A stretch of 64,000 nt of DNA from IMG/VR virus record IMGVR_UViG_3300029543_000197, positions 950-64,949 of that record, one strand, 5' to 3'. The stretch comes from a virus. A program made the position numbers and the translations under genes. Under the pieces are notes generated by a model. The model did not search any database. It worked only from the letters and a program-made list of their open reading frames with translations, and was not told the origin of the DNA. The stretch's first letter is position 1. Every line of letters begins with the position of its first letter. Of the stretch, positions 4,648-45,566 are shown in pieces.

Positions 4648-4798
4648 GGTCCTGCTGGAAAAGGTGGGTTTAAACCCGGAAGAATGGATGAACCTACTGG
4701 AAGATAATTTGTATCTACACATTGTTCAGAAACATTCGGGCGAGCGTGTAGTCAAGATTATAGATAAGAAGAAAGGGGATATAATCGGTGGAAATTAA
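4613..4798 (+). CDS. Small hypothetical protein
   Basis: ATG at 4613 preceded by GGAGGAAGAAG; overlaps the upstream gene. Confidence 0.3.
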   Translation: MKQPKKLTRQNKVLLEKVGLNPEEWMNLLEDNLYLHIVQKHSGERVVKIIDKKKGDIIGGN

Positions 4799-7098: not shown

Positions 7099-7322
7099 AA
7101 GGAGTAGGACTAATGTTATATATCAAAGCCAGATATATGAAAGATGGCGTTCAGCATGGGCGTGAATACACGTTCGGTTCAGATGTGATCGTGAAGCCGG
7201 GAGAAGTAGTTTCTATTGGAACTGCGAAAGCTGTAGTAACTGCGGTTGATGTTCCAGAGACGGAAATTCTTCCTTTCCGGGAGAAGCTGAAAAAGATTGA
7301 TGGGAAAGTGGAGGAAGAGTAA
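7095..7322 (+). CDS. Hypothetical protein
   Basis: 75-aa ORF. Confidence 0.35.
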   Translation: MKGVGLMLYIKARYMKDGVQHGREYTFGSDVIVKPGEVVSIGTAKAVVTAVDVPETEILPFREKLKKIDGKVEEE

Positions 7323-8380
7323 TGGCAGAGAAGAATGAAGTTGCTCAGAAGCAGGAATTTACAACTGGTTTGAGTCAGTGGACAAATACCATAACTGGTC
7401 TTGTCTCAAGGGATTTTGAGCAGAATGGTGTTAAGTATGATGAATATTCTAAGAAGTGTGCTATGAACGCAATGTCTGCAATATTCCAGTTGGTACAGAA
7501 CACCGACAAGGCAGATATGAAAAGCCTCAACACCTCTAATCTTAGAGAAGTTGTGGCACAGTGTGCAAGCCTTAAGCTGAATGCTAGTTCAATGCCAAGA
7601 GAAGTGTATTTTCAGCTTCGCAGTAAGCAGATCAATGGTCAGTGGATTAAGCTTGTCGAAATCGGTATTGAGGGTGACGGGAACGATGCATTATTAAGAA
7701 ATTTCGGCGTGAATGTCGATGCTGTCTATCCATCTTGGTTGGTAAAAGAAGGTGATGATTTTATATATCCAAAGTATAAAGGGTTGGAGATCACACCGCC
7801 TGAATGGAATCCAAAAGGACTTTCTGAAAAAACCGTTCGTGTTGTAACACCGATTAAGTTAAAAGACGGAACTATTGAGTACAGAATAGCTGAAAGAGAA
7901 GCGGTTAAGAATAATTTACTGGCACATATATCTAACAATATGATGAACGAAACATTCGGATTTGTAACCGGAAAGAACTCTAAGGGGAAAGACCGGACGA
8001 GACACGATGCTACAGCGGAAGAGAAAGCGAAAATATCTGCAAAAAAAGAGGAAATCTTGTCAGCCGTTCGTAAATGTGAAACACTGGAAGACATTTTGAA
8101 TAGTGAGGTTGCAAGACCGTTTATTAGTTCGGCATGGCTTAATACACCCGAAGCAATGATTGTTCGAAAGATGCGGAACAATGCTATCAAGAAATTCCCG
8201 AAAGACCTTAACAGTATGGCGTCAAGTTCTCTTTTACAGTTGGATGAAACGTATAAGGTAGCACAGGAAGAGATCAAAGAGAATGAAAATTCACAGGAAT
8301 TTGCAGTTGAAGACGAACCGGATGTAGTAGTTGAATCAGAAGCTGTTGAGGTGGAAACGCCGGAATTCGCAAAGGAGTAA
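7322..8380 (+). CDS. Putative RecT/Redbeta-like single-strand annealing protein
   Basis: 352 aa. It follows an SbcC-like ATPase and precedes SSB. Its profile is RecT-like, with an acidic C-terminal tail (EDEPDVVVESEAVEVETPEF) typical of SSB-interacting annealing proteins. Confidence 0.45.
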   Translation: MAEKNEVAQKQEFTTGLSQWTNTITGLVSRDFEQNGVKYDEYSKKCAMNAMSAIFQLVQNTDKADMKSLNTSNLREVVAQCASLKLNASSMPREVYFQLRSKQINGQWIKLVEIGIEGDGNDALLRNFGVNVDAVYPSWLVKEGDDFIYPKYKGLEITPPEWNPKGLSEKTVRVVTPIKLKDGTIEYRIAEREAVKNNLLAHISNNMMNETFGFVTGKNSKGKDRTRHDATAEEKAKISAKKEEILSAVRKCETLEDILNSEVARPFISSAWLNTPEAMIVRKMRNNAIKKFPKDLNSMASSSLLQLDETYKVAQEEIKENENSQEFAVEDEPDVVVESEAVEVETPEFAKE

Positions 8381-10522: not shown

Positions 10523-10948
10523 ATGAATAAAACAGTTTTAATGGGGAGATTGACAGCAGATCCGCAGGTGAGATATTCACAGGGAGACAATGCTACAGCG
10601 GTTGCAAGATATACACTTGCTGTAAACAGAAAATTTAAGAAAGATGGAGAGCCGACAGCGGATTTTATTCCTTGTGTTGTCTTTGGACGGTCGGCTGAAT
10701 TTACAGAGAAGTATTTCCGCAAAGGAATGCAAGTTGCTGTCTCAGGGCGTATTCAGACCGGAAGCTACACAAACAAGGACGGAAACAAGGCGTATACAAC
10801 AGATGTAGTTGTGGAAGAACAGGAGTTTGCAGAAAGCAAAGCAGCCAATCAGCAGAATCAGCAGTCAGCAGGAAGTGGATCAATTCCGGCATCGGACGGG
10901 TTTATGAATATCCCGGATGGAATGGATGAAGAATTACCATTTAGTTAA
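10523..10948 (+). CDS. ssb: Single-stranded DNA-binding protein
   Basis: OB-fold N-terminus, a Gln/Gly-rich linker and the C-terminal acidic tail DEELPFS. Confidence 0.85.
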   Translation: MNKTVLMGRLTADPQVRYSQGDNATAVARYTLAVNRKFKKDGEPTADFIPCVVFGRSAEFTEKYFRKGMQVAVSGRIQTGSYTNKDGNKAYTTDVVVEEQEFAESKAANQQNQQSAGSGSIPASDGFMNIPDGMDEELPFS

Positions 10949-11164: not shown

Positions 11165-11507
11165 ATGCCAATATGAGGATTGCATTGTTGATAACGTAAA
11201 TGCTCTTCTTAAGAGAAGACGCTGGAATGCGAATCCTGAAGTTTATAGGCAGAAGCAGAGGGATTATAGAAGCAAGGTGGCAGAATCACTTCCTCATTGT
11301 GACGAATGCAATGAATGTACCCTTGTCAAATTAGATAAGGGTACAGGTTTTAAGAGACTGTGCGTCCCAGAAATGCGGTTGATTTTGCAGAAAGTGACGT
11401 GCTGTCCGCAGTGGTGTCCGAAGAAAATACCGGTAAAGGAGCGGGAACATCAGAGATATTTACGAAAAAAAGAACTTAAGGCAGGTGAGAAAACTGATAC
11501 TAATTAG
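11112..11507 (+). CDS. Cysteine-rich protein (paralogous N-terminal motif)
   Basis: CSYPNCYECQYEDC motif paralogous to the upstream ORF, preceded by an AAGGAG RBS. It overlaps the upstream ORF by 53 nt in the +1 frame. Confidence 0.4.
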   Translation: MRSGMAGKKDCSYPNCYECQYEDCIVDNVNALLKRRRWNANPEVYRQKQRDYRSKVAESLPHCDECNECTLVKLDKGTGFKRLCVPEMRLILQKVTCCPQWCPKKIPVKEREHQRYLRKKELKAGEKTDTN

Positions 11508-12141
11508 CGATAAAGGGCAGCAGAAAGGTAAACATACTGCCAAAGAGAATTATTGGCAAAAGCAAGGAATTGAGGTTCTGACTATGCCTCTTCCGTGTGG
11601 TGATTACATTATTGCCAATGAAAAGGTTACGGATGTAATTAACCGGAAGAAAGAACGTGGGATTCCAGTAAAAAAAATGGATTTCCTTGGAACGTACAAT
11701 GTGACTGTTGACACGAAGAAAGATATTCAAGAGCTTGTGGGGGATATCTGCGGTAAACAGCACGCTCGGTTCAGAGATGAGTGTATTTTAGCTCAGAACA
11801 ACGGAATTAAATTGTATGTGCTTACTCAAAATGCTGGGGGTTTAATTGGTGGAACGAAAGATATCTATAACCCAACTATTAAGTCATTGGAAGACTTGCA
11901 TAGCTGGAAGAATCCTAGATTATTCGTGATGAAGCCAACAAAAGAAATTATTGGCTATTACAAAACAAGCGGCAACCCGAAATATAAACGTGTTCAGCGA
12001 TATCCAACAGCAACTAAGGGAGCAACACTTATGAAAGCTTGCATGACGATGCAGAAAAAATATGGAGTAGAATTTGTGTTTTGCCACGATTCAGAACAAG
12101 GATCCATGGTATTAGAATTACTTCAACGGGAGGTGAATTAG
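11485..12141 (+). CDS. Hypothetical protein, possibly a PD-(D/E)xK/ERCC4-like nuclease
   Basis: GDY...EK motif reminiscent of ERCC4/VRR-NUC nucleases; weak. Confidence 0.3.
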   Translation: MRKLILISDKGQQKGKHTAKENYWQKQGIEVLTMPLPCGDYIIANEKVTDVINRKKERGIPVKKMDFLGTYNVTVDTKKDIQELVGDICGKQHARFRDECILAQNNGIKLYVLTQNAGGLIGGTKDIYNPTIKSLEDLHSWKNPRLFVMKPTKEIIGYYKTSGNPKYKRVQRYPTATKGATLMKACMTMQKKYGVEFVFCHDSEQGSMVLELLQREVN

Positions 12142-13041
12142 ATGGCTGAGAAGAGAATGTTTTCCAAGCAGATTATTGATTCGGATGCTTTCTTGGAAAT
12201 GCCATTATCCACACAAGCATTATACTTTCATCTCTCTATGAGAGCGGATGATGATGGATTTCTGAATAATGCAAAAAAGGTAATGAAGATCATCGGTGCA
12301 AATCAGAATGATTACGATCTGCTTGTTGCGAAATCATTTGTCATACAGTTTCCAGACGGGATCTGTGTAATCAAGCATTGGAGAATTAATAATTATTTGA
12401 GGAAAGACAGATACACGGAAACGATTTACCAGGAAGAAAAATCACATCTAACAGTGCAACCGAATGGCAGATATTCCTTTAGAAATGCCGTGGAATCTTC
12501 GGACGTTTTACCGCTTGGTATACCAGTTTGTAACCGGTTGGATACCCAGAATAGAATAGAGAAGAATAGAGAAGAAAAGAATAGTATATATAGTGCAGAA
12601 AAACTGCACGATGAACAATCACTTGATGACTTCTTTGAATCTATTTGGAAGTTATATCCAATCAAAAAAGGGAAAGGGCAGGTATCAACATCAAGGAAGA
12701 AAGCACTTCAAAAAATCGGATACGATCAGATTGGACGTTGTGTTGATCGATTCTTGAAAGATATGAGTGACAGCGGTAGAGATCGTAAATATTGGATGCA
12801 TGGAAGCACGTTCTTCAACAGTGGCTACGTTGATTATTTAGATGAAAACTGGGAGAAAGAAGCGGGAGAAGTGAAGAGTGTAGAAGAATCTGGCGATCGC
12901 TTCTCCTGCCTGGAACCATCTTTCCGTAAGACACTGGAAGGTGCGGGGGCGATTGAAGGGCAGTCACTTAACTACGGACCTATCAGAGATCATCCAGAAT
13001 GGCTACAACAGCTCAAGGAGTGTGGTGTAAGTGATTTATGA
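12142..13041 (+). CDS. Phage replisome organizer / replication initiation protein
   Basis: N-terminus MAEKRMFSKQIIDSDAFLEMPLSTQALYFHL matches the phage replisome-organizer N-terminal domain. The gene contains an internal ori-like repeat block. Confidence 0.7.
   Translation: MAEKRMFSKQIIDSDAFLEMPLSTQALYFHLSMRADDDGFLNNAKKVMKIIGANQNDYDLLVAKSFVIQFPDGICVIKHWRINNYLRKDRYTETIYQEEKSHLTVQPNGRYSFRNAVESSDVLPLGIPVCNRLDTQNRIEKNREEKNSIYSAEKLHDEQSLDDFFESIWKLYPIKKGKGQVSTSRKKALQKIGYDQIGRCVDRFLKDMSDSGRDRKYWMHGSTFFNSGYVDYLDENWEKEAGEVKSVEESGDRFSCLEPSFRKTLEGAGAIEGQSLNYGPIRDHPEWLQQLKECGVSDL
12513..12600. repeat. Putative origin of replication inside the replisome-organizer gene (copy 1 of a duplicated block)
   Basis: Palindromes TGGTATACCA and AACCGGTT followed by AGAATAGAA/GAGAAGAA iterons. 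The 29-nt core GCTTGGTATACCAGTTTGTAACCGGTTGG is identical to 33380-33408. Confidence 0.5.
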
Positions 13042-14851
13042 GTTTAAAGCGGAAGATGCGTATGAGTTCGCAAGACATATCCGTGAGCCGGTAAAGCAAA
13101 AAGGAGATGAGCTGCGGTTTATTCGTTACTGCCCGTATTGTCGTGGTGGAAATGGCGGAAAGAGAGATAAGGATACCTTTTCCATCAACCTGAAGACCGG
13201 TCAGTTCAAGTGCCTGAGATCGAGCTGCGGTGTTACTGGAAACATGATTAGCCTTGCGAGGGACTTTGATTTCAGTCTTGGCGAACAGGTGATGGAGTAT
13301 TACCAGCCAAGAAAACAATACCGGAGATTGAAGACACCGGATAAGCCAATTATCCCAAAGGAACCGGCTATTACTTATCTGGAGAGCAGAAAAATATCTG
13401 ACGAAGTTGCTCGTGAGTATGAGATTACTACTCAGAAAGACCATGACAATATACTCGTATTCCCATTTTATGACGGAGATGGGAAAATGCAGTTCGTGAA
13501 ATACCGGAAGACAGATTTCAACAAAGAAGTGGATAAGAACAAGGAATGGTGTGAATCGAACTGTAAGCCGATTCTATTCGGGATGAAGCAATGCAAGGAC
13601 TTCACAAGGCTTGTGATTACGGAGGGGCAGTTAGATAGCCTTTCCGTAGCGACAGCCGGTATAAAGAATGCCGTGAGCGTTCCGAACGGAGCAAAGGGAT
13701 TTACCTGGATTCCATATTGTTTTGACTGGGTGAACAAATTCCAAGAGATTGTAGTGTTTGGAGATTTTGAAAAAGGGCATATGACATTACTGCCAGAATT
13801 GAAGAGCAGATTTCCCAACAAGATTAAACACGTCCGAGAAGAGGACTACAAAGGCTGTAAAGACGCAAATGAGCTGTTGACGAAGCATGGGTGTGAAGAT
13901 GTTCGACTAGCAGTAGAAAATGCTGAATATGAGCCTGTCAGACGCGTCAAAGAGCTGTCTGACGTGCAGGACGTTGATATATACAGTTTAAAAAAGCTGG
14001 ACTCCACGATCAACGAGTGCAATCGCCTGTTATACGGCGGTATTCCTTTCGGTGGGGTTATCCTTATCACTGGAAAGCCGGGAGAGGGAAAGTCAACACT
14101 TGCAAGTCAGATTGTAGGCAGGGCGATTGAGACCGGACATAAGGTGTTTGCTTATTCCGGTGAGCTTCCAAACTATTTGTTTAAAGCGTGGCTTGATTTT
14201 CAGATAGCCGGTCCGCAGCACATCATCGAAACAACAAACAGATTTGGAGATGTTTCAAGAAAGATTTCCAATCAGAATCAAGAGTTGATTAATGCCTGGT
14301 ATCGAGGAAAAGCGTTTATTTATGACAGTTCGATTGTCGATGGAGATGAGAAAGAGGATCTGTGCAAAACCGTACAGCAAACGGTTCTCCAATACGGAAC
14401 AGATGTTGTTCTGATTGATAATTTAATGACTGCGATTGATTTAGATGCAGAAAAAGGATCTGACAAGTATGAGAAACAGAGTCTTTTTGTGAAAAAACTT
14501 GCGAGGATGGCATTGCAATTCGATGTATTGATTTTGCTTGTAGCTCATAAGAGGAAGAACAATTTTTCCACGAATGAGACAGACGAAATCAGCGGTGCAG
14601 GAGACATATCAAATCTTGCTTCACTGGTGATTGGATACAGCAAGGATAACGAGTTGAGCAATGCGTATCGAAGGCTCACAGTTCCGAAAAACAGATTGTT
14701 TGGGAGAATCAATACAAAGGGATTTCTCGTCATGTATGATGAGCGATCCAAGAGAATTTACGGTGAAAATGATGATTTAACCGTAGAGTATGGATGGGCG
14801 AAGCAAGACGGATTCAGCGAGGCAGATCAACTAAAGATTCCGTTTGAGTAG
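13031..14851 (+). CDS. Bifunctional DNA primase / DnaB-like helicase
   Basis: N-terminal zinc-binding CxxC pairs, a Toprim-like VITEGQLDS region and a C-terminal helicase domain with Walker A GKPGEGKST. Confidence 0.8.
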   Translation: MIYEFKAEDAYEFARHIREPVKQKGDELRFIRYCPYCRGGNGGKRDKDTFSINLKTGQFKCLRSSCGVTGNMISLARDFDFSLGEQVMEYYQPRKQYRRLKTPDKPIIPKEPAITYLESRKISDEVAREYEITTQKDHDNILVFPFYDGDGKMQFVKYRKTDFNKEVDKNKEWCESNCKPILFGMKQCKDFTRLVITEGQLDSLSVATAGIKNAVSVPNGAKGFTWIPYCFDWVNKFQEIVVFGDFEKGHMTLLPELKSRFPNKIKHVREEDYKGCKDANELLTKHGCEDVRLAVENAEYEPVRRVKELSDVQDVDIYSLKKLDSTINECNRLLYGGIPFGGVILITGKPGEGKSTLASQIVGRAIETGHKVFAYSGELPNYLFKAWLDFQIAGPQHIIETTNRFGDVSRKISNQNQELINAWYRGKAFIYDSSIVDGDEKEDLCKTVQQTVLQYGTDVVLIDNLMTAIDLDAEKGSDKYEKQSLFVKKLARMALQFDVLILLVAHKRKNNFSTNETDEISGAGDISNLASLVIGYSKDNELSNAYRRLTVPKNRLFGRINTKGFLVMYDERSKRIYGENDDLTVEYGWAKQDGFSEADQLKIPFE

Positions 14852-16610: not shown

Positions 16611-17168
16611 ATGGAACAAAGAAGGAAGAAAATAAAGTGTGAGATATGGAAAGATATACCTGAGTACAAAGGATTTTATCAGGCATCGAATCTTGGAAAT
16701 ATCCGGTCTTTGGACAGAAAGATATCAAAGATTGGGAATGGAGGTGTAAACGTAACCAGTTTTATGAAAGGACGTGTGCTTGCACAAAGAATACAAAACG
16801 GAGGCTATCCAATTGTTAGTATAAGCGTAAACGCAAAAAGAAAGATATGTACAGTTCACAGATTGGTTGCATCAGCGTTTTTAGACAATCCTGAAAAGTT
16901 TAGGGACGTAAATCATAAGGATGGAAATAAAAGAAATAATTATGTAGAAAATTTGGAATGGACTTCGCATGGGGAAAATATAAAGCATTCCTACAACGTT
17001 CTTAAGCAGGCACGGAATTGCAAGCCAATAAAATGCGTCGATACCGGAGTTGTTTATAGTTCATGCAAAGAAGCAAGTGATTTAACCGGAATTAACGTTG
17101 GTAGTATTAACCATGTAATTACTGGGATTGCGAAAACGGCAGGAGGCATGAGATGGGAAAGAGTATGA
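16611..17168 (+). CDS. HNH homing endonuclease (NUMOD4 plus HNH_3)
   Basis: WKDIPEYKGFYQASNLGNIRS is a NUMOD4 motif; HKDGNKRNNYVENLEWTSHGEN is an HNH motif. Confidence 0.7.
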   Translation: MEQRRKKIKCEIWKDIPEYKGFYQASNLGNIRSLDRKISKIGNGGVNVTSFMKGRVLAQRIQNGGYPIVSISVNAKRKICTVHRLVASAFLDNPEKFRDVNHKDGNKRNNYVENLEWTSHGENIKHSYNVLKQARNCKPIKCVDTGVVYSSCKEASDLTGINVGSINHVITGIAKTAGGMRWERV

Positions 17169-18004
17169 AATGTGAAATCTATAGAGACTCGATGCAAAAT
17201 TTTCGCCGTTATGGAATACCGAAAGCGCAACTGATTATAGCAGATGTGCCATACAATGTTGGAAGCAACTTCTATGGAAGCAATCCAATGTGGTATGTAG
17301 GTGGGGATAACAAAAACGGTGAAAGCAAACTTGCAAAGAAAGCAGCATTCAATTCTGACTTTAATTTCAATTTATATGAATACTTCCACTTCTGCTCGAA
17401 GATGTTGAAGAAAGAGCCAAAGAAAGCCGGTAGACGTGGAAGAAGTTCTGATGCACCGTGCATGATTGTATTTTGCAGTTTTGAGCAGATGAGTACATTG
17501 ATCAATGCAGCTAAGAAACATGGTTTTAATAATTACATACCGCTTGTATTCGTGAAAAATTATAGCCCACAGGTATTGAAAGCAAACATGCGTGTTGTGG
17601 GTGCTACGGAATATGCACTGGTATTATACCGGGATAAGTTGCCGAAATTTAGAAACGGTGCAAAATTTGACGAAAACGGTAAGACGATTCGAGGTACCGG
17701 ACATATGGTGTTTAACTGGTTTAAGTGGGAAAAGGACGGGAAAGAGATACCTAAAATCCATCCAGCACAGAAGCCGGTTAAGGTGTTGGAGCAACTGATC
17801 CAGATATTTACGGATCCGGGGGATGTGGTTATTGATCCTTGCTGCGGTTCCGGTAGCACATTGCGAGCTGCAAGGAATTTAGGTAGAAGTGCTTACGGAT
17901 TTGAAATTGATCGAAATTTTTACAGTAAAGCGAAAAATGAGATGTTGAATGTTGAAGTAGATCCGCAGATGAGCATTACTGATTTTATCGGAGGTACACA
18001 GTGA
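17153..18004 (+). CDS. DNA methyltransferase, N6-adenine/N4-cytosine class (orphan)
   Basis: ADVPYN (DPPY-like motif IV) and DPCCGSGST (motif I); no adjacent restriction enzyme. Confidence 0.75.
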   Translation: MGKSMKCEIYRDSMQNFRRYGIPKAQLIIADVPYNVGSNFYGSNPMWYVGGDNKNGESKLAKKAAFNSDFNFNLYEYFHFCSKMLKKEPKKAGRRGRSSDAPCMIVFCSFEQMSTLINAAKKHGFNNYIPLVFVKNYSPQVLKANMRVVGATEYALVLYRDKLPKFRNGAKFDENGKTIRGTGHMVFNWFKWEKDGKEIPKIHPAQKPVKVLEQLIQIFTDPGDVVIDPCCGSGSTLRAARNLGRSAYGFEIDRNFYSKAKNEMLNVEVDPQMSITDFIGGTQ

Positions 18005-19569
18005 AATTTATAGATTTTTTCGCCGGAATAGGTGGTTTCCGAAAGGGAATGGAACTTGCTGGACATGAGTGTGTTGGTTTTTGTGAATTTGATAAATTTG
18101 CGACTGCAAGCTACATATCCATGCATCTTCTGACAGATGAGCAGAGAAAAGTACTGGAAGAATTACCGCTGAAAAAGCGACAAAAGGAGATTTTGAAAGA
18201 TGAATACAGAAACGGAGAATGGTACGCAAATGACATTAGACGAGTTTGTGCCGATGACATCCCAAAAGCAGACTGTTGGTGCTTCGGATTCCCTTGTCAG
18301 GACATTTCAGTCGCAGGAAAGCAACTTGGATTTCAAGGAAACCGTTCGAGCTTGTTTTTCAGAGTTATGTATCTTGTCGGACAGCTCAAAGAAGAAGATA
18401 AACCCACTCACCTTTTCATTGAGAACGTTAAGAATTTGCTTAGTGTTAATGGAGGATGGGATTTCGCCAGATTGCTCGTTGAAATGGAGCAGGAGGGGTA
18501 CGATGCAGAGTGGCAGGTGTTCAACTCCAAAGATTTCGGAGTGCCACAAAACAGAGAAAGGTGTTTCATTATCGGACATCTTAGAGGGAGAAGTACCGCA
18601 AAAGTATTTCCTGTCGAAAGAGCAGACGGAGAAAATAGTATTTCAATAATTGACCATAAAGATGGATATAGAAGAAACACACAAGTATTTGACCAGAACG
18701 GCATTACAGAAACGCTGGATACTGCACAGGGCGGTGGAAGAGGTCACCATGTAGCGTTACCGTGTTTTATAGATTTATGCAATAGAGGAACAGAAACAAC
18801 TAGTATTGCCAGATGCTTGCAAGCGAGATACTACAAAGGAGCCGGAACGTACAAAGCACAAAATAGCGGTATTGCAATTCCTGTACTTACGCCTGATAGA
18901 GCGGAGAAAAGGCAGAATGGACGGAGATTCAAAGAAGATGGTGAGCCGATGTTTACACTTACTGGACAGGATAGACATGGAGTAGGAATAGAGCCGCTCG
19001 GAGTGCTGCGGAATGTTCGTAGTGATTACGGAAAAGAAATCCGCAAAGATTATGAAGCTGGAAACATCAAAATCTCCAGACATGAATTCCCCGAAAGTGA
19101 AGTTAGAGATGATGGAGTAGTGAACACATTATCAACAGTGCAAAAAGATAACCAACTTGCAGTTAAGGTAGCCGAAGCAACAAAACAGGGTTATTCAGAG
19201 TGCAGAGTAGGTGTAGATAGCGTAAATTTATCTGTTCCGGGGAGCAAAACCAGAAGAGGAAGAGTAGGACATGACCTTGCAAATACGCTTGATACCAGTT
19301 GCAATCAAGGAATTTTTGTACAGGTATCAGATGATTTGATTGTGTATGCTGTCTGGTATGAAAAATATCAGTGTTATATAGCAATTCGAAAATTAACTCC
19401 AAAGGAATGTTTCAGACTGCAAGGATGGACAGATGATTATTTTGAAAAAGCACAGTTTGTAAATTCTGACAGCCAGTTGTATAAGCAAGCCGGGAACGGC
19501 GTAACTGTAAATGTAATTCAGGCAATTGCGGAAGGGATGAAAATAAATGATGCTGAAAGAATTTCTTGA
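18001..19569 (+). CDS. DNA (cytosine-5)-methyltransferase (orphan)
   Basis: FAGIGG (motif I), GFPCQDIS (motif IV), ENV and QNRERCF motifs. Confidence 0.85.
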   Translation: MKFIDFFAGIGGFRKGMELAGHECVGFCEFDKFATASYISMHLLTDEQRKVLEELPLKKRQKEILKDEYRNGEWYANDIRRVCADDIPKADCWCFGFPCQDISVAGKQLGFQGNRSSLFFRVMYLVGQLKEEDKPTHLFIENVKNLLSVNGGWDFARLLVEMEQEGYDAEWQVFNSKDFGVPQNRERCFIIGHLRGRSTAKVFPVERADGENSISIIDHKDGYRRNTQVFDQNGITETLDTAQGGGRGHHVALPCFIDLCNRGTETTSIARCLQARYYKGAGTYKAQNSGIAIPVLTPDRAEKRQNGRRFKEDGEPMFTLTGQDRHGVGIEPLGVLRNVRSDYGKEIRKDYEAGNIKISRHEFPESEVRDDGVVNTLSTVQKDNQLAVKVAEATKQGYSECRVGVDSVNLSVPGSKTRRGRVGHDLANTLDTSCNQGIFVQVSDDLIVYAVWYEKYQCYIAIRKLTPKECFRLQGWTDDYFEKAQFVNSDSQLYKQAGNGVTVNVIQAIAEGMKINDAERIS

Positions 19570-30743: not shown

Positions 30744-30822
30744 GCTCTTTCCCTTTCTAGTCTGCCATCATCAGAGCCGGGAGACTGTCCCGCGGCTGAC
30801 GGTCATTTCTGACCGTTTCGGC

Positions 30823-30984
30823 TTATATGTGCTCAATCCTAAATCTTTCTCTTGTGTCTTTCGGAAGAACAAGGTTAATAAAATCTTCCGCAAGAACTAA
30901 AGTGTCAAACTGTGCCACTTCCCTGTCAAATGGCTTTTCGAATTTGCTCGTGTAGCATGTTTCTACGACTTTCCACTTCATCAT
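30823..30984 (-). CDS. Small hypothetical protein (53 aa)
   Basis: GAGGG RBS; below the track cutoff. Confidence 0.3.
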   Translation of the reverse strand: MMKWKVVETCYTSKFEKPFDREVAQFDTLVLAEDFINLVLPKDTRERFRIEHI

Positions 30985-31709: not shown

Positions 31710-31869
31710 TTTTGTTCCCTCCGTTTTTCTTTCTTTTTTTCTGCGACTGCCTCAGGTTTTTCAATTAATCAGATCGCTTGCTTATGTCCTCATTGTATTG
31801 AGTGGTTCAGGGCGTCCGGTTGTTTGTCCTGTGTGGCTGTTGCTGTATCTCGTTTACAGTTATTATAAT

Positions 31870-32000
31870 ACATGAAATATCATGTAATTGCAATATTATA
31901 AATACACTAAATATCATGTATTTGATAATTCAGTATTTGTGCATTTTACACTAAATAACATGTAATTGACTTTACAATAAAAACCATGTATAATTTTATT
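31870..32000. promoter_or_regulatory. Second genetic-switch operator array
   Basis: Four direct copies of about AAATA(T/A)CATGTA(A/T)TTG at about 31874, 31909, 31953 and 31980. The last overlaps a TATAAT -10 for the 32019 gene. An inverted copy lies at 32286-32299. Confidence 0.55.
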
Positions 32001-32018: not shown

Positions 32019-32246
32019 ATGATTACTTATAAAATAGATGTATTAGAATCATTAAAAGAAGCCGGATATAATACGACTAGATTAAGAAAAGAAAAGCTTT
32101 TAAATGAAAGCGCTATACAATATCTAAGAAGTGGCAAGCCCGTTGGAGCTAAAGCATTAAATAATATTTGCATGTTGTTGGATATGCAGCCGGGAAATAT
32201 TATAAAATATGTAGAAGACGACAACACGATAAAAGATGTAAAATAA
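32019..32246 (+). CDS. Small HTH DNA-binding regulator (Cro/CI-like)
   Basis: AGGAGG RBS; HTH region LLNESAIQYLRSGKPVGAKALNNICMLL; flanked by operator repeats. Confidence 0.55.
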   Translation: MITYKIDVLESLKEAGYNTTRLRKEKLLNESAIQYLRSGKPVGAKALNNICMLLDMQPGNIIKYVEDDNTIKDVK

Positions 32247-32849: not shown

Positions 32850-33140
32850 GTGAAGATAAAAGGAATTGGAACCATAGCAAAAAACAAGGCTATGGAGATA
32901 TTGACCGCAGAGGGCAGAAAAGCCGTTAGAAGCGGAGATATAACCACGGAAGAGCTGGCAGAAATGTACAAGTTGCAAAAGGTCAAAGAGGCTTGTGCAA
33001 TCGGTACTTGTACCGACAACTTCAACAATTCTTATAAGTGGGTGCCGGATGAACTAAAAGAAAATCTAACACCGGACCAGCTCGGACGGCTCACAGAATC
33101 GTTTTACGAATGTTATAGAGCTGGAAAAAATGATGTGTAA
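32850..33140 (+). CDS. Hypothetical protein
   Basis: AGGAGG RBS; 96 aa. Confidence 0.4.
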   Translation: MKIKGIGTIAKNKAMEILTAEGRKAVRSGDITTEELAEMYKLQKVKEACAIGTCTDNFNNSYKWVPDELKENLTPDQLGRLTESFYECYRAGKNDV

Positions 33141-33143
33141 ACG

Positions 33144-33174
33144 AATAAGAGCGGGGTTTTGCCCCGCTCTTATT
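33144..33174 (+). terminator. Rho-independent terminator (perfect 13-bp stem)
   Basis: AATAAGAGCGGGGttttgCCCCGCTCTTATT. Confidence 0.6.
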
Positions 33175-33379
33175 CTCACGTTAAAATATTCAATCCGTGT
33201 GACACCGACATCATTTTGAATGCCATTATTTCAATCCTTGCCCGGCGGAATTGCTGCCGGAACCGCATCGGAAAGCGTCCATTCCGTGCGACAGCATTAT
33301 AATATCATAGCTAATCTGATTAGTCAAGATATGCAGCTCTTTGGGGCTGTCTTTTTTGCACTTCCAGAGAGTGAAATAT

Positions 33380-33485
33380 GCTTGGTATACCAGTTTGTAA
33401 CCGGTTGGTCTACCACTTGGAAACCCAGAGAAGAATAGAAAAGAGAAGAGAAGAATAGAAAAGAATATATATTATATCTTGTGCA
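33380..33485. repeat. Second copy of the ori-like repeat block (intergenic)
   Basis: The 29-nt core is identical to 12513-12541, followed by related AGAAGAATAGAAAAGAGAAGAG iterons. A hairpin TTGTGCATttcgcaagctgATGCACAA plus a T-run follows at 33476-33513. Confidence 0.5.
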
Positions 33486-33711
33486 TTTCGCAAGCTGATG
33501 CACAACTTTTTTGATTGGGGTTGACACGTGCGGAATATTAGATTAATATATTAACCAGACAAAGTGAATAGGCGGTATATAGCCAGATTATAATAATATA
33601 TACATTTCTTGGTAGTCCTTAGAGACCGTGACCCGTAAAGCAGATATACGTTACTGCATACGGCGATCGGTCTTTTTTATTTATATTTTTACAGTTTGGA
33701 GGTGAACGGAA

Positions 33712-34317
33712 ATGAAAGATAATACAGACATTACGTCTACTGGGATAGAGATATATAGACATGACATTAATTATTACGCCGATGAATATATCAAAAATGA
33801 ATTAGAGTTAGATCATGTAGATCAGGAGAGTAAAAAAATCGTAAAAGATAGCTTTGTAGATATGCTTTTTTATATTTCAGACCGTATATCTAAGCCAGAT
33901 AATGCAGACATAAAAGCATTAGATAATATATTTAGTGTGTATGTAAGACTATGCAGTAAATATTCAGTTAATCCAACATTGGAAGCATTTAGCTTTTTAG
34001 TGAATATAGACAGAACAACGTTTAATACTTGGCTTAATGGGAGATATCGGACAGCTGAACACTCCGACACGGTCAAAAAATGGTTGAATATTTGCAAAGG
34101 TTTTTTGGTCGACAATTTGGGAAATTCCAAGGGGACAGATGCGAACAAAATATTCATTGCAAAAGCTGCTTACGGAATGGCGGAGACAAAAGCAGTAGAG
34201 CATGAACAGATTACTGGAGCGAAAAAGAGTATTGAACAAATCGCTGCCGACATCGGAGCAGATCCCAAAGCACTTCCAGGTGATGCGGATACAGATGATC
34301 CGGTTGACTTATTTTAA
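33712..34317 (+). CDS. Hypothetical protein, candidate terminase small subunit
   Basis: 201 aa. It lies downstream of the ori/pac-like structured region and has a helical, basic middle; the TerS assignment is speculative. Confidence 0.3.
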   Translation: MKDNTDITSTGIEIYRHDINYYADEYIKNELELDHVDQESKKIVKDSFVDMLFYISDRISKPDNADIKALDNIFSVYVRLCSKYSVNPTLEAFSFLVNIDRTTFNTWLNGRYRTAEHSDTVKKWLNICKGFLVDNLGNSKGTDANKIFIAKAAYGMAETKAVEHEQITGAKKSIEQIAADIGADPKALPGDADTDDPVDLF

Positions 34318-35663: not shown

Positions 35664-35800
35664 TATTTCTTCTGTCCGTGCTTGCATTTAGCATAATCGC
35701 AATCGCAGTTGCATGGATAGGAAATAAGGTTTATCTCAGCATGAAAAGAGATGAAGCAAGGATAAAGAAGGAAATTGAAAAGGAGAACAAGGAAGAATGA
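35654..35800 (+). CDS. Small single-TM protein (48 aa) coupled to the SPFH gene
   Basis: AGGAGGAAGAAG RBS; MWVIFLLSVLAFSIIAIAVAWIG transmembrane helix plus a charged tail; overlaps the SPFH start. Confidence 0.45.
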   Translation: MWVIFLLSVLAFSIIAIAVAWIGNKVYLSMKRDEARIKKEIEKENKEE

Positions 35801-36657
35801 AAAAGGGCGTACTTATTGGAATTATTGCGGCAGTAGCAATTACAGGTGGAATTTTCACAGTCAGATCTTGCAAATTTATTGACACAGGAAAAGTTGGAAT
35901 TGTATACAACTACAAAGACGGAGTTCAGAAAGAAACACTTTCTCCTGGACTGAATTTCGTATCCCCGTTTAAAAAAGTAAAACAGTTTTCCACAAGTAAT
36001 GAGATTCTCGTAATGTCAAAGGATAAGCGTGAGGGTAGTAAGGGTGATGACTCTTTTAAGGTTGCCACATCTGATGACGCAAGTATCTCTGTGAGTTTTC
36101 AGATGTCATACAGATACAATCCGGATACCGTAGTTGATACATACAAAAGGTTTCGCGGAATGGATGGAGATGACATTGTAGAAAGTCGTGTAAAAACTGT
36201 CCTGAAATCAAAAATTTCCGAAGTGACAACTGATTATTCTATGATGGATATCTATTCCGGCAATAGATCGCAGCTTAACACTGAAATTACAGAATATCTG
36301 AACAAAGAATTTAGCAAGAGCTATGGAATTGAAGTCCTTGATGCGTCAATTATTGATGTACACCCAGACAAGAAACTTAAGGCATCTATTGATAGCAGGG
36401 TAACTGCATTACAGGAAAAACAGCAGGCAGAGGCTGAACAGCAGAAAATCAAGGTTCAGAAAGAGACTGAAAAATTACAGGCGGAGGCTGATGCAGAAAT
36501 TGAGATTACGAAAGCAAAGGCAGAGGCAGAGTCGAACAAAATTGTCAGTGAATCAATCACTGATGAGCTTATCAGAATGAAAGAAGCCGAAGCCAGAAAC
36601 AAATTCGGATGGGTTACTGTTCAGGGAGCGGATACGGTAGTAACCGATAACAAATAG
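35797..36657 (+). CDS. SPFH/Band-7 (stomatin/prohibitin/HflK-C-like) membrane protein
   Basis: N-terminal transmembrane helix, SPFH core and a C-terminal coiled coil (QQAEAEQQKIKVQKETEKLQAEADAEIEITKAKAEAES). Confidence 0.65.
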   Translation: MKKGVLIGIIAAVAITGGIFTVRSCKFIDTGKVGIVYNYKDGVQKETLSPGLNFVSPFKKVKQFSTSNEILVMSKDKREGSKGDDSFKVATSDDASISVSFQMSYRYNPDTVVDTYKRFRGMDGDDIVESRVKTVLKSKISEVTTDYSMMDIYSGNRSQLNTEITEYLNKEFSKSYGIEVLDASIIDVHPDKKLKASIDSRVTALQEKQQAEAEQQKIKVQKETEKLQAEADAEIEITKAKAEAESNKIVSESITDELIRMKEAEARNKFGWVTVQGADTVVTDNK

Positions 36658-36806: not shown

Positions 36807-36890
36807 TGGTGGATATGCAAGTGGTTAAAGCAGGCTGACTGTAAATCAGATGTCCGTGTGACTTCGTGGGTTCAAATCCTACTCCACCAA
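36807..36890 (+). tRNA. tRNA-Tyr (anticodon GTA), long variable arm
   Basis: Manual fold: a 7/7-bp acceptor stem, GACTGTAAATC anticodon loop and a GGGTTCAAATCC T-arm. Confidence 0.6.
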
Positions 36891-36992
36891 TTCCAGTGAG
36901 TGGCGACACTGGGACCTCCTTTTTATATGTATGAGTGACTGGTTTCTTTGCGGTGCGGAGAGTAATTGAATGGCGATTCACCCAGTCAGTAT

Positions 36993-37075
36993 GCCGTATT
37001 CCCATAATGGTATTGGAGATGCTTGCTAAGCATTCAGTCGGAAACGACTTGGAGGTTCGACTCCTCCATACGGCG
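36993..37075 (+). tRNA. tRNA-Ser (anticodon GCT), long variable arm
   Basis: Perfect 7-bp acceptor (GCCGTAT/ATACGGC), 3-bp D stem, loop TTGCTAA, variable-arm hairpin AGTCGgaaaCGACT and T-arm GGAGGttcgactCCTCC. Confidence 0.65.
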
Positions 37076-37076
37076 T

Positions 37077-37148
37077 TGCGGATTAGTGGAACGGTTACCA
37101 CGCAAGGCTCATAACCTTGAAAAGTCGGTTCAATTCCGACATTCGCCA
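37077..37148 (+). tRNA. tRNA-Met (anticodon CAT; elongator Met or lysidine-Ile2 type)
   Basis: Anticodon stem CAAGG/CCTTG with loop CTCATAA, D-stem GTGG/CCAC and T-arm GTCGGttcaattCCGAC. The 1-72 pair is mismatched. Confidence 0.5.
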
Positions 37149-37230
37149 TTTCTGAGTTTTGCTGTTCTCAGAATGCTTTATGTCATGACATGACGCTCCT
37201 TGTACTATCGCATTTTAAAAACAGCAATAT

Positions 37231-37304
37231 GCTATCATGGCTCAATCGGATAGAGCGGTTGACTATGGATCAACAGATTCCCGGTTCGACTCCGGGCGGT
37301 AGCT
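37231..37304 (+). tRNA. tRNA with atypical anticodon ATG (A34); His-codon reader or pseudo-tRNA
   Basis: Canonical cloverleaf: D stem GCTC/GAGC, anticodon stem GTTGA/TCAAC, loop CTATGGA, T-arm CCCGGttcgactCCGGG. The acceptor has one A-C mismatch. Confidence 0.45.
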
Positions 37305-37361
37305 CTCTCCGGGGAGTGGAATTTCCTGGAGACCTTTTTCTTTCATAGTGATTTTCCAGTG

Positions 37362-37433
37362 TACTGTATAGTTTAAGCGGCAGAATGATTAGCGAATGGC
37401 TAATAGGTTTCGGTTCGATTCCGAATGCAGTAA
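37362..37433 (+). tRNA. tRNA-like gene with a non-canonical anticodon loop (CGAATGG); possible pseudo-tRNA
   Basis: Good acceptor (TACTGTA/TGCAGTA) and T-arm (TTCGGttcgattCCGAA), but the D-arm is irregular and position 33 is G. Confidence 0.3.
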
Positions 37434-37439
37434 TTTTAT

Positions 37440-37510
37440 CGGGTAATAGCTCAACGGTAGAGCAACGGACTTTGACTCCGTATGTTGGGGTTCGATTCCC
37501 CATTACCTTG
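37440..37510 (+). tRNA. tRNA-Gln (anticodon TTG)
   Basis: D stem GCTC/GAGC, anticodon stem ACGGA/TCCGT, loop CTTTGAC, T-arm TGGGGttcgattCCCCA. Confidence 0.6.
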
Positions 37511-37511
37511 T

Positions 37512-37583
37512 AGGTCGATAGTTTAATTGGCAAAACAGCGGTCTCCAAAACCGCAATTATAGGTTCGATCCCTATTCGGTCTG
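37512..37583 (+). tRNA. tRNA-Trp (anticodon CCA)
   Basis: Acceptor AGGTCGA/TCGGTCT (two G-U pairs), D stem GTTT/AAAC, anticodon stem GCGGT/ACCGC, loop CTCCAAA, T-arm ATAGGttcgatcCCTAT. Confidence 0.6.
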
Positions 37584-38249
37584 TTCAAACATGATTAACT
37601 CGGTGAAGATGGATTTTTCAGTCCAGCCGAGATGCAATGGTAATGAGATAGGTTTATTCGGGATACTGGATAAACTGATTCTTTCCGGCGTGAGTGATTG
37701 TGCTGGTGGAGACGGAAACCGTCAACAACGCCTTGCAGTGTATCATCATAGAGAAATTAAAAGCAGAATCCTTGTGGTCGGCGTAGAATAGACGCTTGCG
37801 GTGCAAGAATAATCCATTCAGTTTGTGGTGTGAGAGACTACGAATGGCGGTGGAAAATCTCACTAAGCCGATTTGCCTTGAATCCGAGAAATCGGAGTAT
37901 AACACAAGAAATTCGTTAAAGTAGCGGTATGGCATTGTTTGAAGAAGATATAAAATCTCCAACGTAGAGATGTTAAGCAAAACATAATCTGAAAGAACCG
38001 TGAAATTTACTGGTACCAATCCAGTGTGTGCTTTGACAGTGGTAGGAAGCCTAGAGTCGCTCTCGAAAGCTCAGACCTATCATCACACTGGCAGAATATG
38101 GCTTCTACCTTGATGAATAAGGGGAAACCCTAATCATGTTTGAAGATGTGAAAGCCGGATTTTTAGCTGCGGAGTTATCCGGAAAAGTGGATTTTTACTA
38201 ATTCGTTATGCAACAATAGAACCGTAGCAGCGACAGGTGATTACTGGTC

Positions 38250-38332
38250 TGTCGGCTAATGACATGTAGCTCCAATGGCAGAGCGTCCGGCCGTTAACCG
38301 GATGGTTGCGGGTTCAAGTCCCGCCATGTCAG
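38250..38332 (+). tRNA. tRNA-Asn (anticodon GTT)
   Basis: Perfect acceptor TGACATG/CATGTCA, D stem GCTC/GAGC, anticodon stem TCCGG/CCGGA, loop CCGTTAA, T-arm GCGGGttcaagtCCCGC, followed by a T7 run. Confidence 0.55.
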
Positions 38333-38360: not shown

Positions 38361-38873
38361 ATGACATTTAAAGAAGCATTAAAAGCAATGAAACGTGGAG
38401 CAAAGGTGAGACTTCCTGGTTGGTTAGCTTATTATTGGTACTGGGATGAGGAAAAAGAGACGGTTATGACGCATAGTAAGCCGTTGCTCACTGGAGGCGA
38501 AGAAAATGAAACTGATATTAACGACGAGAGAGTTGGGAGAGTTTTTGATGATATGCTAAGAGAGGACTGGATGATTGCAAACGAAGAAAATTGTCCGATA
38601 GTCTGTGACAAAGCAGTATTTTCATTTGGTGACGCTATCACATATCTGAAAAAAGGGCGTAAAGTGGCACGTAGAGGTTGGAATGGTAAGAAGCAGTACA
38701 TTCAACTTGCTACTGGTATTTCTTATAAGACAGCAGATGGAGAAATTGTAAACTGCGAACATGATGCTATCGGAAACATGGCTATTTCATTTGTCGGAAC
38801 ATCAGGAGTGCAGATGGGATGGCTCGCAAGTCAGGCAGATATGCTTGCAGAAGACTGGATGTTTGCGGAGTAG
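38361..38873 (+). CDS. Tandem DUF2829-domain protein (Tad2-like; candidate anti-Thoeris sponge)
   Basis: The N-terminus MTFKEALKAMKRGAKVRLPGW and an internal FGDAITYLKKGRKVARRGWNGKKQYIQL both fit the DUF2829 signature (EAL..LK.GKKV.R.GW). Two copies sit in one 170-aa protein. Confidence 0.55.
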   Translation: MTFKEALKAMKRGAKVRLPGWLAYYWYWDEEKETVMTHSKPLLTGGEENETDINDERVGRVFDDMLREDWMIANEENCPIVCDKAVFSFGDAITYLKKGRKVARRGWNGKKQYIQLATGISYKTADGEIVNCEHDAIGNMAISFVGTSGVQMGWLASQADMLAEDWMFAE

Positions 38874-40615: not shown

Positions 40616-40657
40616 GAGCCGATATTTGTGAGAAATTGCAGATATTGGCTCTTTTTT
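40616..40657 (+). terminator. Rho-independent terminator upstream of terL
   Basis: GAGCCGATATTTG...CAGATATTGGCTC stem followed by TTTTTT. Confidence 0.55.
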
Positions 40658-43973: not shown

Positions 43974-45566
43974 GTGTCCGAGGACAATAAAGCATATGTA
44001 TATCCTGAATTAACTGGCAGACGCCGGATTTATACGGATGTGGAAAAGATTACAAAAGAAAATATCTTTCAGGTGTTGGAAGAAGCGATGCTTGTCCACA
44101 TGGAAAATGCAAACAATATGGTTACCTTGATGCGGTACGAAAAAGGTATTCAGCCACTTGTGAGAAAGAAAACGATCCGTAAGGACGTTGATATTAGAGT
44201 ACAAGATAATCTCGCAAACCAAATTACCGAGTTTAAGCTCGGATATGTTTGGGGGCAGCCAATCACCTATGTGCAACGTGGAAATAAGGATTTGAGCAAA
44301 TCTACAGATAAACAGAATGATTCACAGGATGATGCGATTTCCATGTTGAATGAGCTGAATGATTCAGAATATGCTTTTTCAAAAGATCAGGAGCTTGGCA
44401 GATTTGTTGAAATTAACGGAATTGGTTATCAGTTCGTTGATATCAAAAAGGTTTATGATGGTTTAGCTCCATTTGATCTTGCAACGCTAAATCCCTTGTT
44501 TACGTTCTGCATCTACAGAAATTCAGCGTTACAAGAAAAGATTGCTGGTGTTACTTTCCGCAGGACGAAGGACGGAACGGTGTACTATACAGTGTTCACG
44601 CCGGATACTCGCTATGAGATTAAAGATATGCGAGAAATTATAAATGGAAATAAGCCTGAAAATCCGTGGTCATTTATGGGGAGAAGCGGAGAGGCAAATC
44701 CGTTCGGCAAGATCCCGATTGTGGAGTTTAACCGGGCAACGGACAGAATGGGATGCTTTGAACGGCAGATTTCTGATATGAACGCACTGAACGTAGAGGT
44801 GTCTGATTTCGCCAACAGCGTAGCACAGACAACTCAGGAAGTATTTTTTGGTACAGGATTCGACTTGCCGAAAGATAGTGATGGTAAAACTCAGTCTCCT
44901 ATTGGAGGGCAATGGATTATCGCACCGCAGAGTGGGAATGGTGGAACGCCAATGTTAAAGGCTGTTTCAAGCACATTTGATTATCAGGGCGTGCAAGAAA
45001 ATATCGTAAGCAAGCGTAACATGATTTTACAAAAGGCTTACGTCCCAATTCAGACAGATCCCGGTGGCGGCTCTACTGGATCTGCAATGAATATGTCTTC
45101 TGGTTGGAGTGCTGCTGAAAACAGTGCTTGCAAGGAAGAACAGATTTTACGCCGAGGAAAAGCGGAGATTGTAGAACTTGAACTGATTGCAATTCAAAAA
45201 ACAAACAGTATCCCATATGACAGTCCGCTTCGGGAATTAAAGTTTTCTGATGTTAAGCCAAAATTCATCAGGAACAAGACTTATGATCTTGCTACAAAGG
45301 TTAATTCAATGGTTGCAATGATTAATTCCGGAGTGCATGGACGTGTCGCTATGGAGCAGGTTGATTTATTCCCAGATGTGGCACAGGCATGGGCTGACAG
45401 TCGAAAAACGATTGAACAGTATCAGGAATCGCTTATAAAGAAAGATACTCAGCAGCAACCACAGAAAAGGGAGATGGCTGACCTGTCCGATCAAACGGGC
45501 AATTCACCGATTTTAGACGGAATGAGTACCAATGATGGCGGTGGTGACGATGTTCAAGAATCTTAG
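43974..45566 (+). CDS. Portal protein
   Basis: 530 aa following terL; SPP1 gp6-like size and position. Confidence 0.7.
   Translation: MSEDNKAYVYPELTGRRRIYTDVEKITKENIFQVLEEAMLVHMENANNMVTLMRYEKGIQPLVRKKTIRKDVDIRVQDNLANQITEFKLGYVWGQPITYVQRGNKDLSKSTDKQNDSQDDAISMLNELNDSEYAFSKDQELGRFVEINGIGYQFVDIKKVYDGLAPFDLATLNPLFTFCIYRNSALQEKIAGVTFRRTKDGTVYYTVFTPDTRYEIKDMREIINGNKPENPWSFMGRSGEANPFGKIPIVEFNRATDRMGCFERQISDMNALNVEVSDFANSVAQTTQEVFFGTGFDLPKDSDGKTQSPIGGQWIIAPQSGNGGTPMLKAVSSTFDYQGVQENIVSKRNMILQKAYVPIQTDPGGGSTGSAMNMSSGWSAAENSACKEEQILRRGKAEIVELELIAIQKTNSIPYDSPLRELKFSDVKPKFIRNKTYDLATKVNSMVAMINSGVHGRVAMEQVDLFPDVAQAWADSRKTIEQYQESLIKKDTQQQPQKREMADLSDQTGNSPILDGMSTNDGGGDDVQES

Follow-up and report, generated by a model that had tools for sequence, protein, structure and literature searches.

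A probable counterpart of SPP1 oriR: a second origin-like cassette at the head of the late operon in a lineage of gut prophages

Introduction

Bacillus phage SPP1 has two replication origins: oriL is part of gene 38, and oriR is in an intergenic segment with transcription signals on both sides; each consists of direct repeats together with an AT-rich unwinding element (PMC6316719, PMC3485210, PMC5737612). The gene 38 product, gp38, binds oriL as well as oriR, its affinity for the two being similar; oriL supports unidirectional theta replication in vitro, and it is proposed that the fork stalls at oriR when gp38 is bound there, which triggers a switch to concatemer synthesis by way of the phage recombination proteins (PMC6316719, PMC3485210, PMC5737612). 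Here we analyse a stretch of viral DNA of 64,000 nucleotides (IMG/VR record IMGVR_UViG_3300029543_000197, positions 950 to 64,949; hereafter the window), which is a temperate-type siphovirus genome. An origin-like block inside its replisome-organizer gene (copy 1) recurs in non-coding DNA ahead of the first late gene (copy 2). We argue that copy 2 probably corresponds to SPP1 oriR, as a second origin-like cassette with a full set of parts, which the organizer encoded by the phage itself would recognise through its N-terminal DNA-binding domain.

In-gene origins are known from the DnaD-like and Phage_rep_org_N organizers of Firmicutes phages, among them the Lactococcus P335 group (Tuc2009, TP901-1) and Lactobacillus phage A2, and copy 1 is a typical member of this class. 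To our knowledge such phages have been described with one origin; compared with them, the conserved second, intergenic copy is an addition in the lineage of the window. Satellite phage P4 (ori and crr) and plasmid R6K (gamma, alpha and beta) offer another comparison, as each of these replicons has two separated clusters of binding repeats for one initiator, the distant cluster acting in cis. The initiator of P4 is also its primase-helicase, and crr has no unwinding element of its own. The window likewise has two separated repeat clusters on one replicon, but its second cluster keeps the full set of origin parts at a distance of 20.9 kb. A conserved second intergenic origin outside SPP1 is something of which we found no description in the searchable literature.

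Results

The 29-mer GCTTGGTATACCAGTTTGTAACCGGTTGG occurs exactly twice in the window, at 12513-12541 and 33380-33408, both on the + strand and 20.9 kb apart; no third site is found within the 64 kb at up to three mismatches, and in 100 dinucleotide-preserving shuffles two matches never arose. A first-pass annotation, made from the sequence alone, had recorded this identity and a related purine-rich continuation in both copies, and on both counts it was right. A repeat finder independently pairs 12548-12588 with 33427-33467, which are the purine-rich runs, and in pairwise alignment the similarity stops at the flanks, leaving a shared block that measures 80 nt (copy 1) or 99 nt (copy 2). The difference in length is one additional 12-nt box, TTGGTCTACCAC, in copy 2. 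Read against relatives, the conserved unit is a direct repeat, TTGGTAnACC, in tandem boxes at 11-12-nt spacing. The same annotation drew attention to palindromes in the core. The core does contain TGGTATACCA and AACCGGTT; relatives, however, do not keep AACCGGTT, which is simply the junction of boxes 2 and 3, and for that reason we rejected the palindromes as a functional unit.

The order and orientation of the parts are equal in the two copies: boxes, purine tract, AT-rich stability minimum, inverted repeat (Table 1). Each copy has the make-up of an iteron-type origin, that is, at least three direct repeats about one helical turn apart beside a low-stability AT-rich element (three boxes in copy 1, four in copy 2). 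In nearest-neighbour stability the copy 1 minimum, starting at 12562, ranks in the top 0.23% of the window's 30-step windows, and that of copy 2, starting at 33450, in the top 0.07%. The copy 2 tract is the most purine-rich 40-mer in the whole 64 kb (37/40); copy 2 encodes nothing, so this tract is kept as DNA. A TATATA stretch after the purine-rich run is common to both copies, as is a GTGCA core in the inverted repeats, and GTGCA repeats related to those of copy 2 stand at the matching place in relatives with the type B boxes described below. The copy 2 inverted repeat has its centre ~64 nt upstream of the predicted start of late transcription and may act as an insulator of terminator type or as a site for a regulator. 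Rfam has no family over the copy 2 region.

Copy 1 does lie inside the organizer gene, as first annotated; the gene is assigned through PHROG, Pfam giving no match for the window organizer. It occupies about residues 124-150, in the interdomain linker between the N- and C-domains, and its purine tract and AT-rich part (12550-12592) encode the linker NRIEKNREEKNSIY. Homologs of the organizer in GenBank phages are Streptococcus, Lactococcus and Lactobacillus proteins named replisome organizer or DnaD-like, and the primase-helicase encoded next to it is presumed to be the enzyme loaded at the origins. Boxes and a purine-rich run are found at the matching in-gene position in the organizers of dozens of relatives. 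In the relatives L017-L026, organizer residues 1-149, which comprise the N-domain and the origin, are ~91% identical to those of the window, and the C-terminal part is swapped for an unrelated one. For the pair L410/L422, L410 retains the C-terminus (84%) and the primase-helicase (80%), but has another N-part with type C boxes. The in-gene origin thus marks a domain-swap breakpoint of organizer genes, as seen in L017-L026 and L410/L422.

The gap that contains copy 2 runs from the stop codon at 33140 to the ATG at 33712, and copy 2 is 332 nt upstream of a gene for a 201-aa protein. The gap had been described as a 530-bp non-coding, hairpin-rich stretch following a perfect terminator; it is non-coding and has hairpins, one of them a perfect 14-bp hairpin at 33143-33175, and its length is 571 nt. 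Its contents are two terminator hairpins, a promoter-like site, a leader hairpin and then a ribosome-binding site. In every relative a GGCTGTCTTTTT terminator stands ahead of the cassette, including those with different upstream genes, and the TTGACA site, which in the window belongs to a late promoter-like site ~90 nt downstream of copy 2, is kept at the late-promoter position in relatives. The copy 2 cassette is flanked by terminators and is located at the head of the late operon.

Is the cassette conserved? Searches of GenBank phage DNA with the copy 2 region and with the replication module gave no close relative; IMG/VR holds many relatives. Copy 1 is identical or near-identical in contigs with the same organizer (L010-L012, L015), has a variant box set in L013, L014 and L016, whose organizers are 84-88% identical, and is a variant too in L017-L026 (N-domain 91% identical, C-domain replaced). 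In L090-L097 and L111, copy 2 precedes the 201-aa gene by 311-328 nt; in L091-L093 it is kept though the upstream genes differ, with one box missing. Six contigs found through the exact core (L001-L004, L007, L009) have the same cassette and layout before a diverged first late gene, and four of the six also yield the organizer locus with the swapped C-domain (L020, L023, L024, L026). In nine contigs an in-gene origin of type A is accompanied by a slot cassette of type A. Of the 80 loci in a census, 21 were close relatives with at least 77% identity in the TerS-like 201-aa protein and sufficient flank, and in 21/21 an origin cassette is kept, 260-370 nt upstream of the gene, so that conservation of a cassette in the slot of copy 2 in related phage genomes is borne out. 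Exact 29-nt identity of the two copies is particular to this genome, the relatives having one mismatch or another box set; what is shared is the box family. The order accessory genes, cassette, 201-aa gene, SPFH gene, tRNAs, TerL (large terminase), portal recurs in ~10 phage contigs of 50-66 kb. No further copy was found within 10 kb of the organizer in 75 organizer loci, where the partner is either farther off or absent, and a 27-mer is absent from species-representative genomes.

Boxes of three types occupy the slot before the 201-aa gene. Type A has TTGGTATACC boxes (for example in the window, L104 and L123), type B has GTAACGTTAC boxes and a purine tract (L103, L105, L108, L109), and type C has TAACGTTA boxes with a pyrimidine-rich CTCTATATCTTAT run (L101, L116, L141). 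All three are also found inside organizer genes elsewhere, and the type in the slot varies among 201-aa proteins that are 77-79% identical. The informative case is L411 (contig 3300029334_000240), reached by walking upstream along one contig. The L411 organizer (Pfam Phage_rep_org_N, E 4e-37), followed by a DnaB helicase, has an N-domain unrelated to that of the window, and the C-domain alone aligns (25% identity, E 2e-5). Type B boxes, GTAACGTTAC, are found in this organizer gene at L411 1161-1230 (GTAACGTTACGGTAACGCATGATAACGCAATAGATATAGAAG); the slot, 16.4 kb downstream, again carries GTAACGTTAC boxes, at 17615-17690 (GTAACGTTACAATAACGTTACGTAACGCAATAGAATAAGAAAG), and the neighbours are homologous to those of the window (ERCC4 gene 81%, TerS-like gene 78%). 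To judge from these sequences, both sites switch to one new box type when the replication module is exchanged. Because the in-gene and slot boxes change together in L411, the slot cassette would be read by the organizer, not by the terminase, and the comparison argues that it is under selection.

Several observations on the boxes may be added. The slots of L415 (9520-9745; Dorea sp. metagenome-assembled genome CAKRAH010000001.1) and L418 (IMG/VR 2806310968_000003) hold a type A and then a type C cassette in tandem. A scan with the pattern TAACGTTACNNTAACGTTAC found the box type widespread in genes and in non-coding DNA among the matches listed; a scan with a loose iteron pattern, TAACGTTACN{1,6}TAACG, gave nothing usable. 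The combination of GTAACGTTAC boxes with a purine tract and with an AT-rich stretch turns up very commonly among viral contigs, both in genes (L264, L301, L333) and in non-coding DNA (L272, L298, L318), again among the matches listed. With the same limit, phages of ~75 kb with a 53%-identical homolog of the 201-aa protein have a non-coding or in-frame GTAACGTTAC layout more than 10 kb from the gene for that homolog.

How close is the likeness to SPP1? In the SPP1 record, nt 373-441 of gene 38 (~residues 125-147) match 4878-4948 at 83% over 71 nt and on the same strand, a site with the gene 7 terminator on one side and gene 8 on the other. The in-gene origin is thus in the N/C-domain linker in both phages, at gene nt 373-441 in SPP1 and 372-451 in the window. 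In both, the second copy has the same orientation as the first, is intergenic between a terminator and a promoter (33333-33359 and 33521-33549 in the window), and is beside late or packaging genes; direct repeats as well as an AT-rich element are found in both copies of either phage, and either phage has its own helicase, SSB, annealing protein and nucleases. The statement of the first-pass annotation that a second copy elsewhere is not common must therefore be qualified, since SPP1 has this layout and its organizer binds both copies (PMC6316719, PMC5737612). Differences are also plain. The box sequences are unrelated; the window has a primase-helicase fusion and no separate loader was seen in it; oriR comes after the portal and gene 7 region, whereas copy 2 comes before the first late gene; the window phage is temperate-like (repressor, Ant), whereas SPP1 is lytic; and the two putative origins of the window are described here from sequence.

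Is the 201-aa protein a small terminase (TerS), as was suggested at the outset? It has a PHROG match to TerS (Table 1), but its homologs do not match PHROG 606, and the protein itself has no Pfam, PDB-sequence or PDB-fold match. The AlphaFold model is of moderate quality (pLDDT, the predicted local distance difference test, 62; core 70-86), and the best Foldseek matches of this pLDDT-62 model in BFVD are mostly named small terminase or DNA-packaging protein (E 4e-5 to 0.04, TM 0.4-0.57). The gene is not beside that of TerL, which starts 6.3 kb downstream, at 40628; in relatives, too, it is always 5-9 kb upstream of TerL, with accessory genes and tRNAs between. It is the first gene after the late promoter, in the late transcription direction that it shares with TerL. 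In public records the protein is hypothetical; one 94%-identical copy is recorded as coming from [Ruminococcus] lactaris, and matches in metagenome-assembled genomes come from Dorea and Blautia. The prophage host is probably [Ruminococcus] lactaris or a relative of it in the Lachnospiraceae. The protein is possibly TerS.

The late leader resembles lambda PR'-tR', which suggests antitermination control of the leader terminator. For this leader (33521-33711) there is no Rfam family, and RNAalifold gave no usable covariation, the terminator arm being misaligned. A leader of ~150 nt with a long multi-level hairpin and a U-run recurs upstream of the 201-aa gene in L090, L098, L101, L103 and L114. 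On the other side of the cassette, the ~155 nt between the two terminator hairpins (33176-33332) have no conserved open reading frame (ORF) and no Rfam match; a minus-strand promoter-like TTGACT-17-TATTAT with TG, running from 33327 to 33299, faces the bidirectional hairpin at 33143-33175, and the segment could encode a small RNA. Right after the T-run of the pre-cassette terminator is a short motif (33351-33372; examples are TTTTTTGCACTTCCAGAGAG, TTTTTTGTGTCTTCCAGCG and TTTTTCTGTGCCTGAATTC), which is found at the matching place in L001-L009, L090-L111 and L103-L109. SPP1 (L170) has TTTTTTTCGTGCTTCTGAGA at ~4755-4775, after the gene 7 terminator and upstream of oriR, a likeness that is possibly coincidence.

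Table 1. Coordinates of the features discussed, in window positions
Feature	Positions	Strand	Evidence or remark
Repressor	2455-2826	-	
Anti-repressor (Ant)	3220-4005		
SbcC-like protein	4788-6812		
RecT	7322-8380		
SSB	10523-10948		
ERCC4 nuclease	11485-12141		
Replisome-organizer gene (DnaD-like), 299 aa	12142-13041	+	PHROG 5708/8489 'DnaD-like helicase loader', E 1e-70
Copy 1 block	12513-12592	+	
Copy 1 boxes TTGGTATACCAG, TTTGTAACCGG, TTGGATACCCAG (3 tandem)	12515-12549	+	Sequence; many relatives have this box family within their organizer gene
Copy 1 purine tract	12550-12584	+	
Copy 1 AT-rich TATATATA	12585-12592	+	
Copy 1 inverted repeat GTGCAG-AAAAA-CTGCAC	12593-12609	+	DNA fold, z -4.0; directly after AT-rich stretch
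Primase-helicase fusion	13031-14851	+	PHROG 239 'DNA primase/helicase', E 6e-86; Pfam AAA_25, DnaB_C
Methyltransferases	17153-19569		
Accessory stretch	~20-33 kb		
Perfect 14-bp hairpin after stop of ORF 32850-33140	33143-33175		Sequence; terminator-like call on minus strand
Intrinsic terminator GCAGCTC-TTTG-GGGCTGT + T-run	33333-33359	+	Directly 5' of copy 2
Copy 2 block	33380-33478	+	
Copy 2 boxes TTGGTATACCAG, TTTGTAACCGG, TTGGTCTACCAC, TTGGAAACCCAG (4 tandem)	33382-33428	+	Sequence
Copy 2 purine tract	33429-33463	+	
Copy 2 AT-rich AATATATATTATAT, putative unwinding element	33464-33478	+	
Copy 2 inverted repeat TTGTGCAT-N11-ATGCACAA, then T-run CTTTTTTG	33479-33512 (repeat 33479-33505)	+	DNA fold
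Late-operon promoter-like site TTGACA-17-TAATAT	33521-33549	+	10 of 12 match
Long leader hairpin GACCG...CGGTC + T-run	33624-33678	+	RNA fold -30.4 kcal/mol, z -2.4; just 5' of ribosome-binding site
201-aa gene, first after late promoter, possible small terminase	33712-34317	+	PHROG 606 TerS, E 3.7e-5
SPFH/Band 7 protein	35797-36657	+	One of the accessory genes that separate TerL from the first late gene
Eight tRNA genes (Tyr, Ser, Met, His, Ile, Gln, Trp, Asn) + ROOL RNA	36807-38332		
Tad2-like protein (Thoeris anti-defence)	38361-38873	+	Pfam PF11195, E 6e-26; accessory gene in the same interval
TerL with intein, 918 aa	40628-43384	+	
SPP1-type portal	43974-45566		

The remaining genome context is summarised in Table 1; the window includes a recombination module of SbcC-like protein, RecT, SSB and ERCC4 nuclease. 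According to PHROG, the ORFs of the 28.4-35.7 kb segment comprise an HNH endonuclease and a member of PHROG 1233 (unknown function), and otherwise have no family. On the minus strand at 30756-30823, within the accessory stretch of low coding density and where the GC and AT skews are inverted, is a type II hammerhead ribozyme (RF02276; 55.6 bits, gathering score 37). Just 5' of the ORF at 32019-32246 are three 24-nt direct repeats, AATACAnnAAATATCATGTAATTG, at 31867-31968 (+), 34 and 44 nt apart, which look like operator sites. The tRNA array, between the first late gene and TerL, contains a full-length ROOL RNA (Rfam RF03087, 387 bits) at 37575-38151 (+). The TerL intein, at ~residues 155-465, has Hint and LAGLIDADG homing-endonuclease parts; in several relatives (L104-L106, L109, L415) TerL is intein-free, residues 1-154 and 464-918 being contiguous.

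Discussion

What, then, does copy 2 do? Its sequence architecture, its position, its conservation and its covariation with organizer type make a second origin, comparable to SPP1 oriR, the probable answer; of the possibilities raised by the first-pass annotation, that of a second origin or initiator-binding site gains from the constancy of the slot and from the shift of box type with organizer type. We picture the following. The organizer would bind the three or four tandem TTGGTAnACC boxes at copy 1 and copy 2, and as the boxes are one helical turn apart, all would lie on one face of the DNA. The duplex would then open at the adjoining purine tract and AT-rich stretch, where the C-domain of the organizer would recruit the primase-helicase. 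Terminators on either side would shield copy 2 from transcription. Copy 2 would serve as a second initiation site and, when occupied by the organizer, would also block forks coming from copy 1. Following the SPP1 model, such a block would bring about the switch from circle-to-circle replication to recombination-driven concatemers, just ahead of the packaging genes, and the phage's RecT, SSB, SbcC-like protein and ERCC4-type nuclease would serve the switch.

A number of points weigh against this interpretation. Covariation on the same contig for a type other than A comes from one contig, L411; for type C, the scan of gene and slot gave single matches per contig, and the pairing is seen across contigs only. 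In the 64-kb window, GC skew gives no origin signal and tracks the coding strand. Phages that are more distant but have a homologous first late gene, such as MT835477 and most ~75-kb contigs, show no recognisable type A, B or C cassette, and therefore the second copy is not obligatory. MT835477, the sole GenBank phage with a homolog of the 201-aa protein, has neither an organizer homolog nor the cassette and hence offers no test of covariation. The parallel with SPP1 is itself limited. The window organizer has no detectable homology to G38P, the SPP1 organizer (BLASTP E 0.34), and G38P has Pfam Phg_2220_C, whereas the window organizer has no Pfam match; the organizers not being detectably homologous, the parallel is architectural, one of design and not of protein family. 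Moreover, the role of oriR in the cell is a model and has not been demonstrated (PMC6316719, PMC3485210). Binding, melting, firing and fork arrest at the two copies of the window are steps that we infer from the DNA sequence.

The strongest competitor, which we regard as unlikely though worth serious attention, is that copy 2 is a binding-only control site that never initiates, and that acts by looping or handcuffing with copy 1, by titration of the initiator, or by coupling the organizer to the late promoter. The boxes are the best-conserved part of the cassette, and the cassette is invariably found after a terminator and directly upstream of the late promoter, as a control site might be. Looping systems, such as P4 crr and R6K, use two iteron clusters in direct orientation, the arrangement found here. 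For such a function, however, boxes alone would suffice, but the non-coding copy also keeps the purine tract, the AT-rich stretch and the inverted repeat, in types A and B alike. That purine tract, unwinding-type stretch and inverted repeat are all kept where nothing is encoded favours a complete origin over a bound barrier or control site. The two readings are not fully exclusive, as a binding-only site overlaps the fork-barrier part of the second-origin model.

A related and somewhat less likely proposal would see the cassette as a portable module for licensing, placed where the late operon starts. Organizer binding, or opening of the duplex, at copy 2 would couple replication to late transcription and packaging, and the slot would swap cassettes along with the replication module. 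If this were true, the genomes with tandem cassettes, L415 and L418, would be exchange intermediates, or carriers of decoys that titrate the initiator of a competitor phage.

Could copy 2 be a pac site that a small terminase from the downstream gene recognises, the likeness to copy 1 being secondary? The pac of SPP1-type phages is in or beside the terS gene and has repeats and A-tracts, and copy 2 lies 332 nt upstream of a possibly TerS-like gene. We nevertheless consider a pac site improbable. TerS-like proteins that are 77-79% identical are preceded by TTGGTATACC, GTAACGTTAC or type C boxes, and the boxes match instead the in-gene origin of the resident organizer. Furthermore, a promoter and the leader terminator intervene between cassette and gene, and the TerS identity of the 201-aa protein is weak.

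Still less probable is a neutral recombination scar, a functionless leftover of an organizer gene. Copy 1 does mark a recombination breakpoint between N-domain plus origin and C-domain, and the tandem, differing cassettes of L415 and L418 do resemble recombination debris. The flanks of copy 2 are, however, devoid of organizer coding sequence, and the cassette is intact at a fixed slot in 21/21 close relatives, with its four parts kept and its type matched to the resident organizer; such persistence and covariation are not expected of a neutral 100-nt fragment and contradict this suggestion of the first-pass annotation. Its further suggestion, a cis element by which a satellite, or an island resembling a phage-inducible chromosomal island, at 29-36 kb borrows the phage initiator, we think very improbable, for although 29-33 kb looks foreign (low coding density, genes on both strands, the hammerhead ribozyme), the island has no integrase, replication, primase or capsid-size-redirecting genes by PHROG, the segment is syntenic in ~10 phage contigs that run into TerL and portal, and the cassette heads the phage's own late operon.

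We return to copy 2 as a probable second origin and to what this would mean. SPP1 oriR has been known since the 1990s and, in the searchable literature, has seemed to be a curiosity of one phage. What is new here is an SPP1-like arrangement of two origins across a large lineage of Lachnospiraceae prophages from the human gut, whose organizer is unrelated to that of SPP1. New as well is comparative evidence for selection on second origins and for their reading by the initiator, in that the slot is fixed and the box type follows the organizer. Types A, B and C and the tandem cassettes are natural variants with which the early-to-late replication shift may be probed. The signature of boxes, purine tract and AT-rich stretch may serve to locate origins, and to predict initiator specificity, in uncultured phages.

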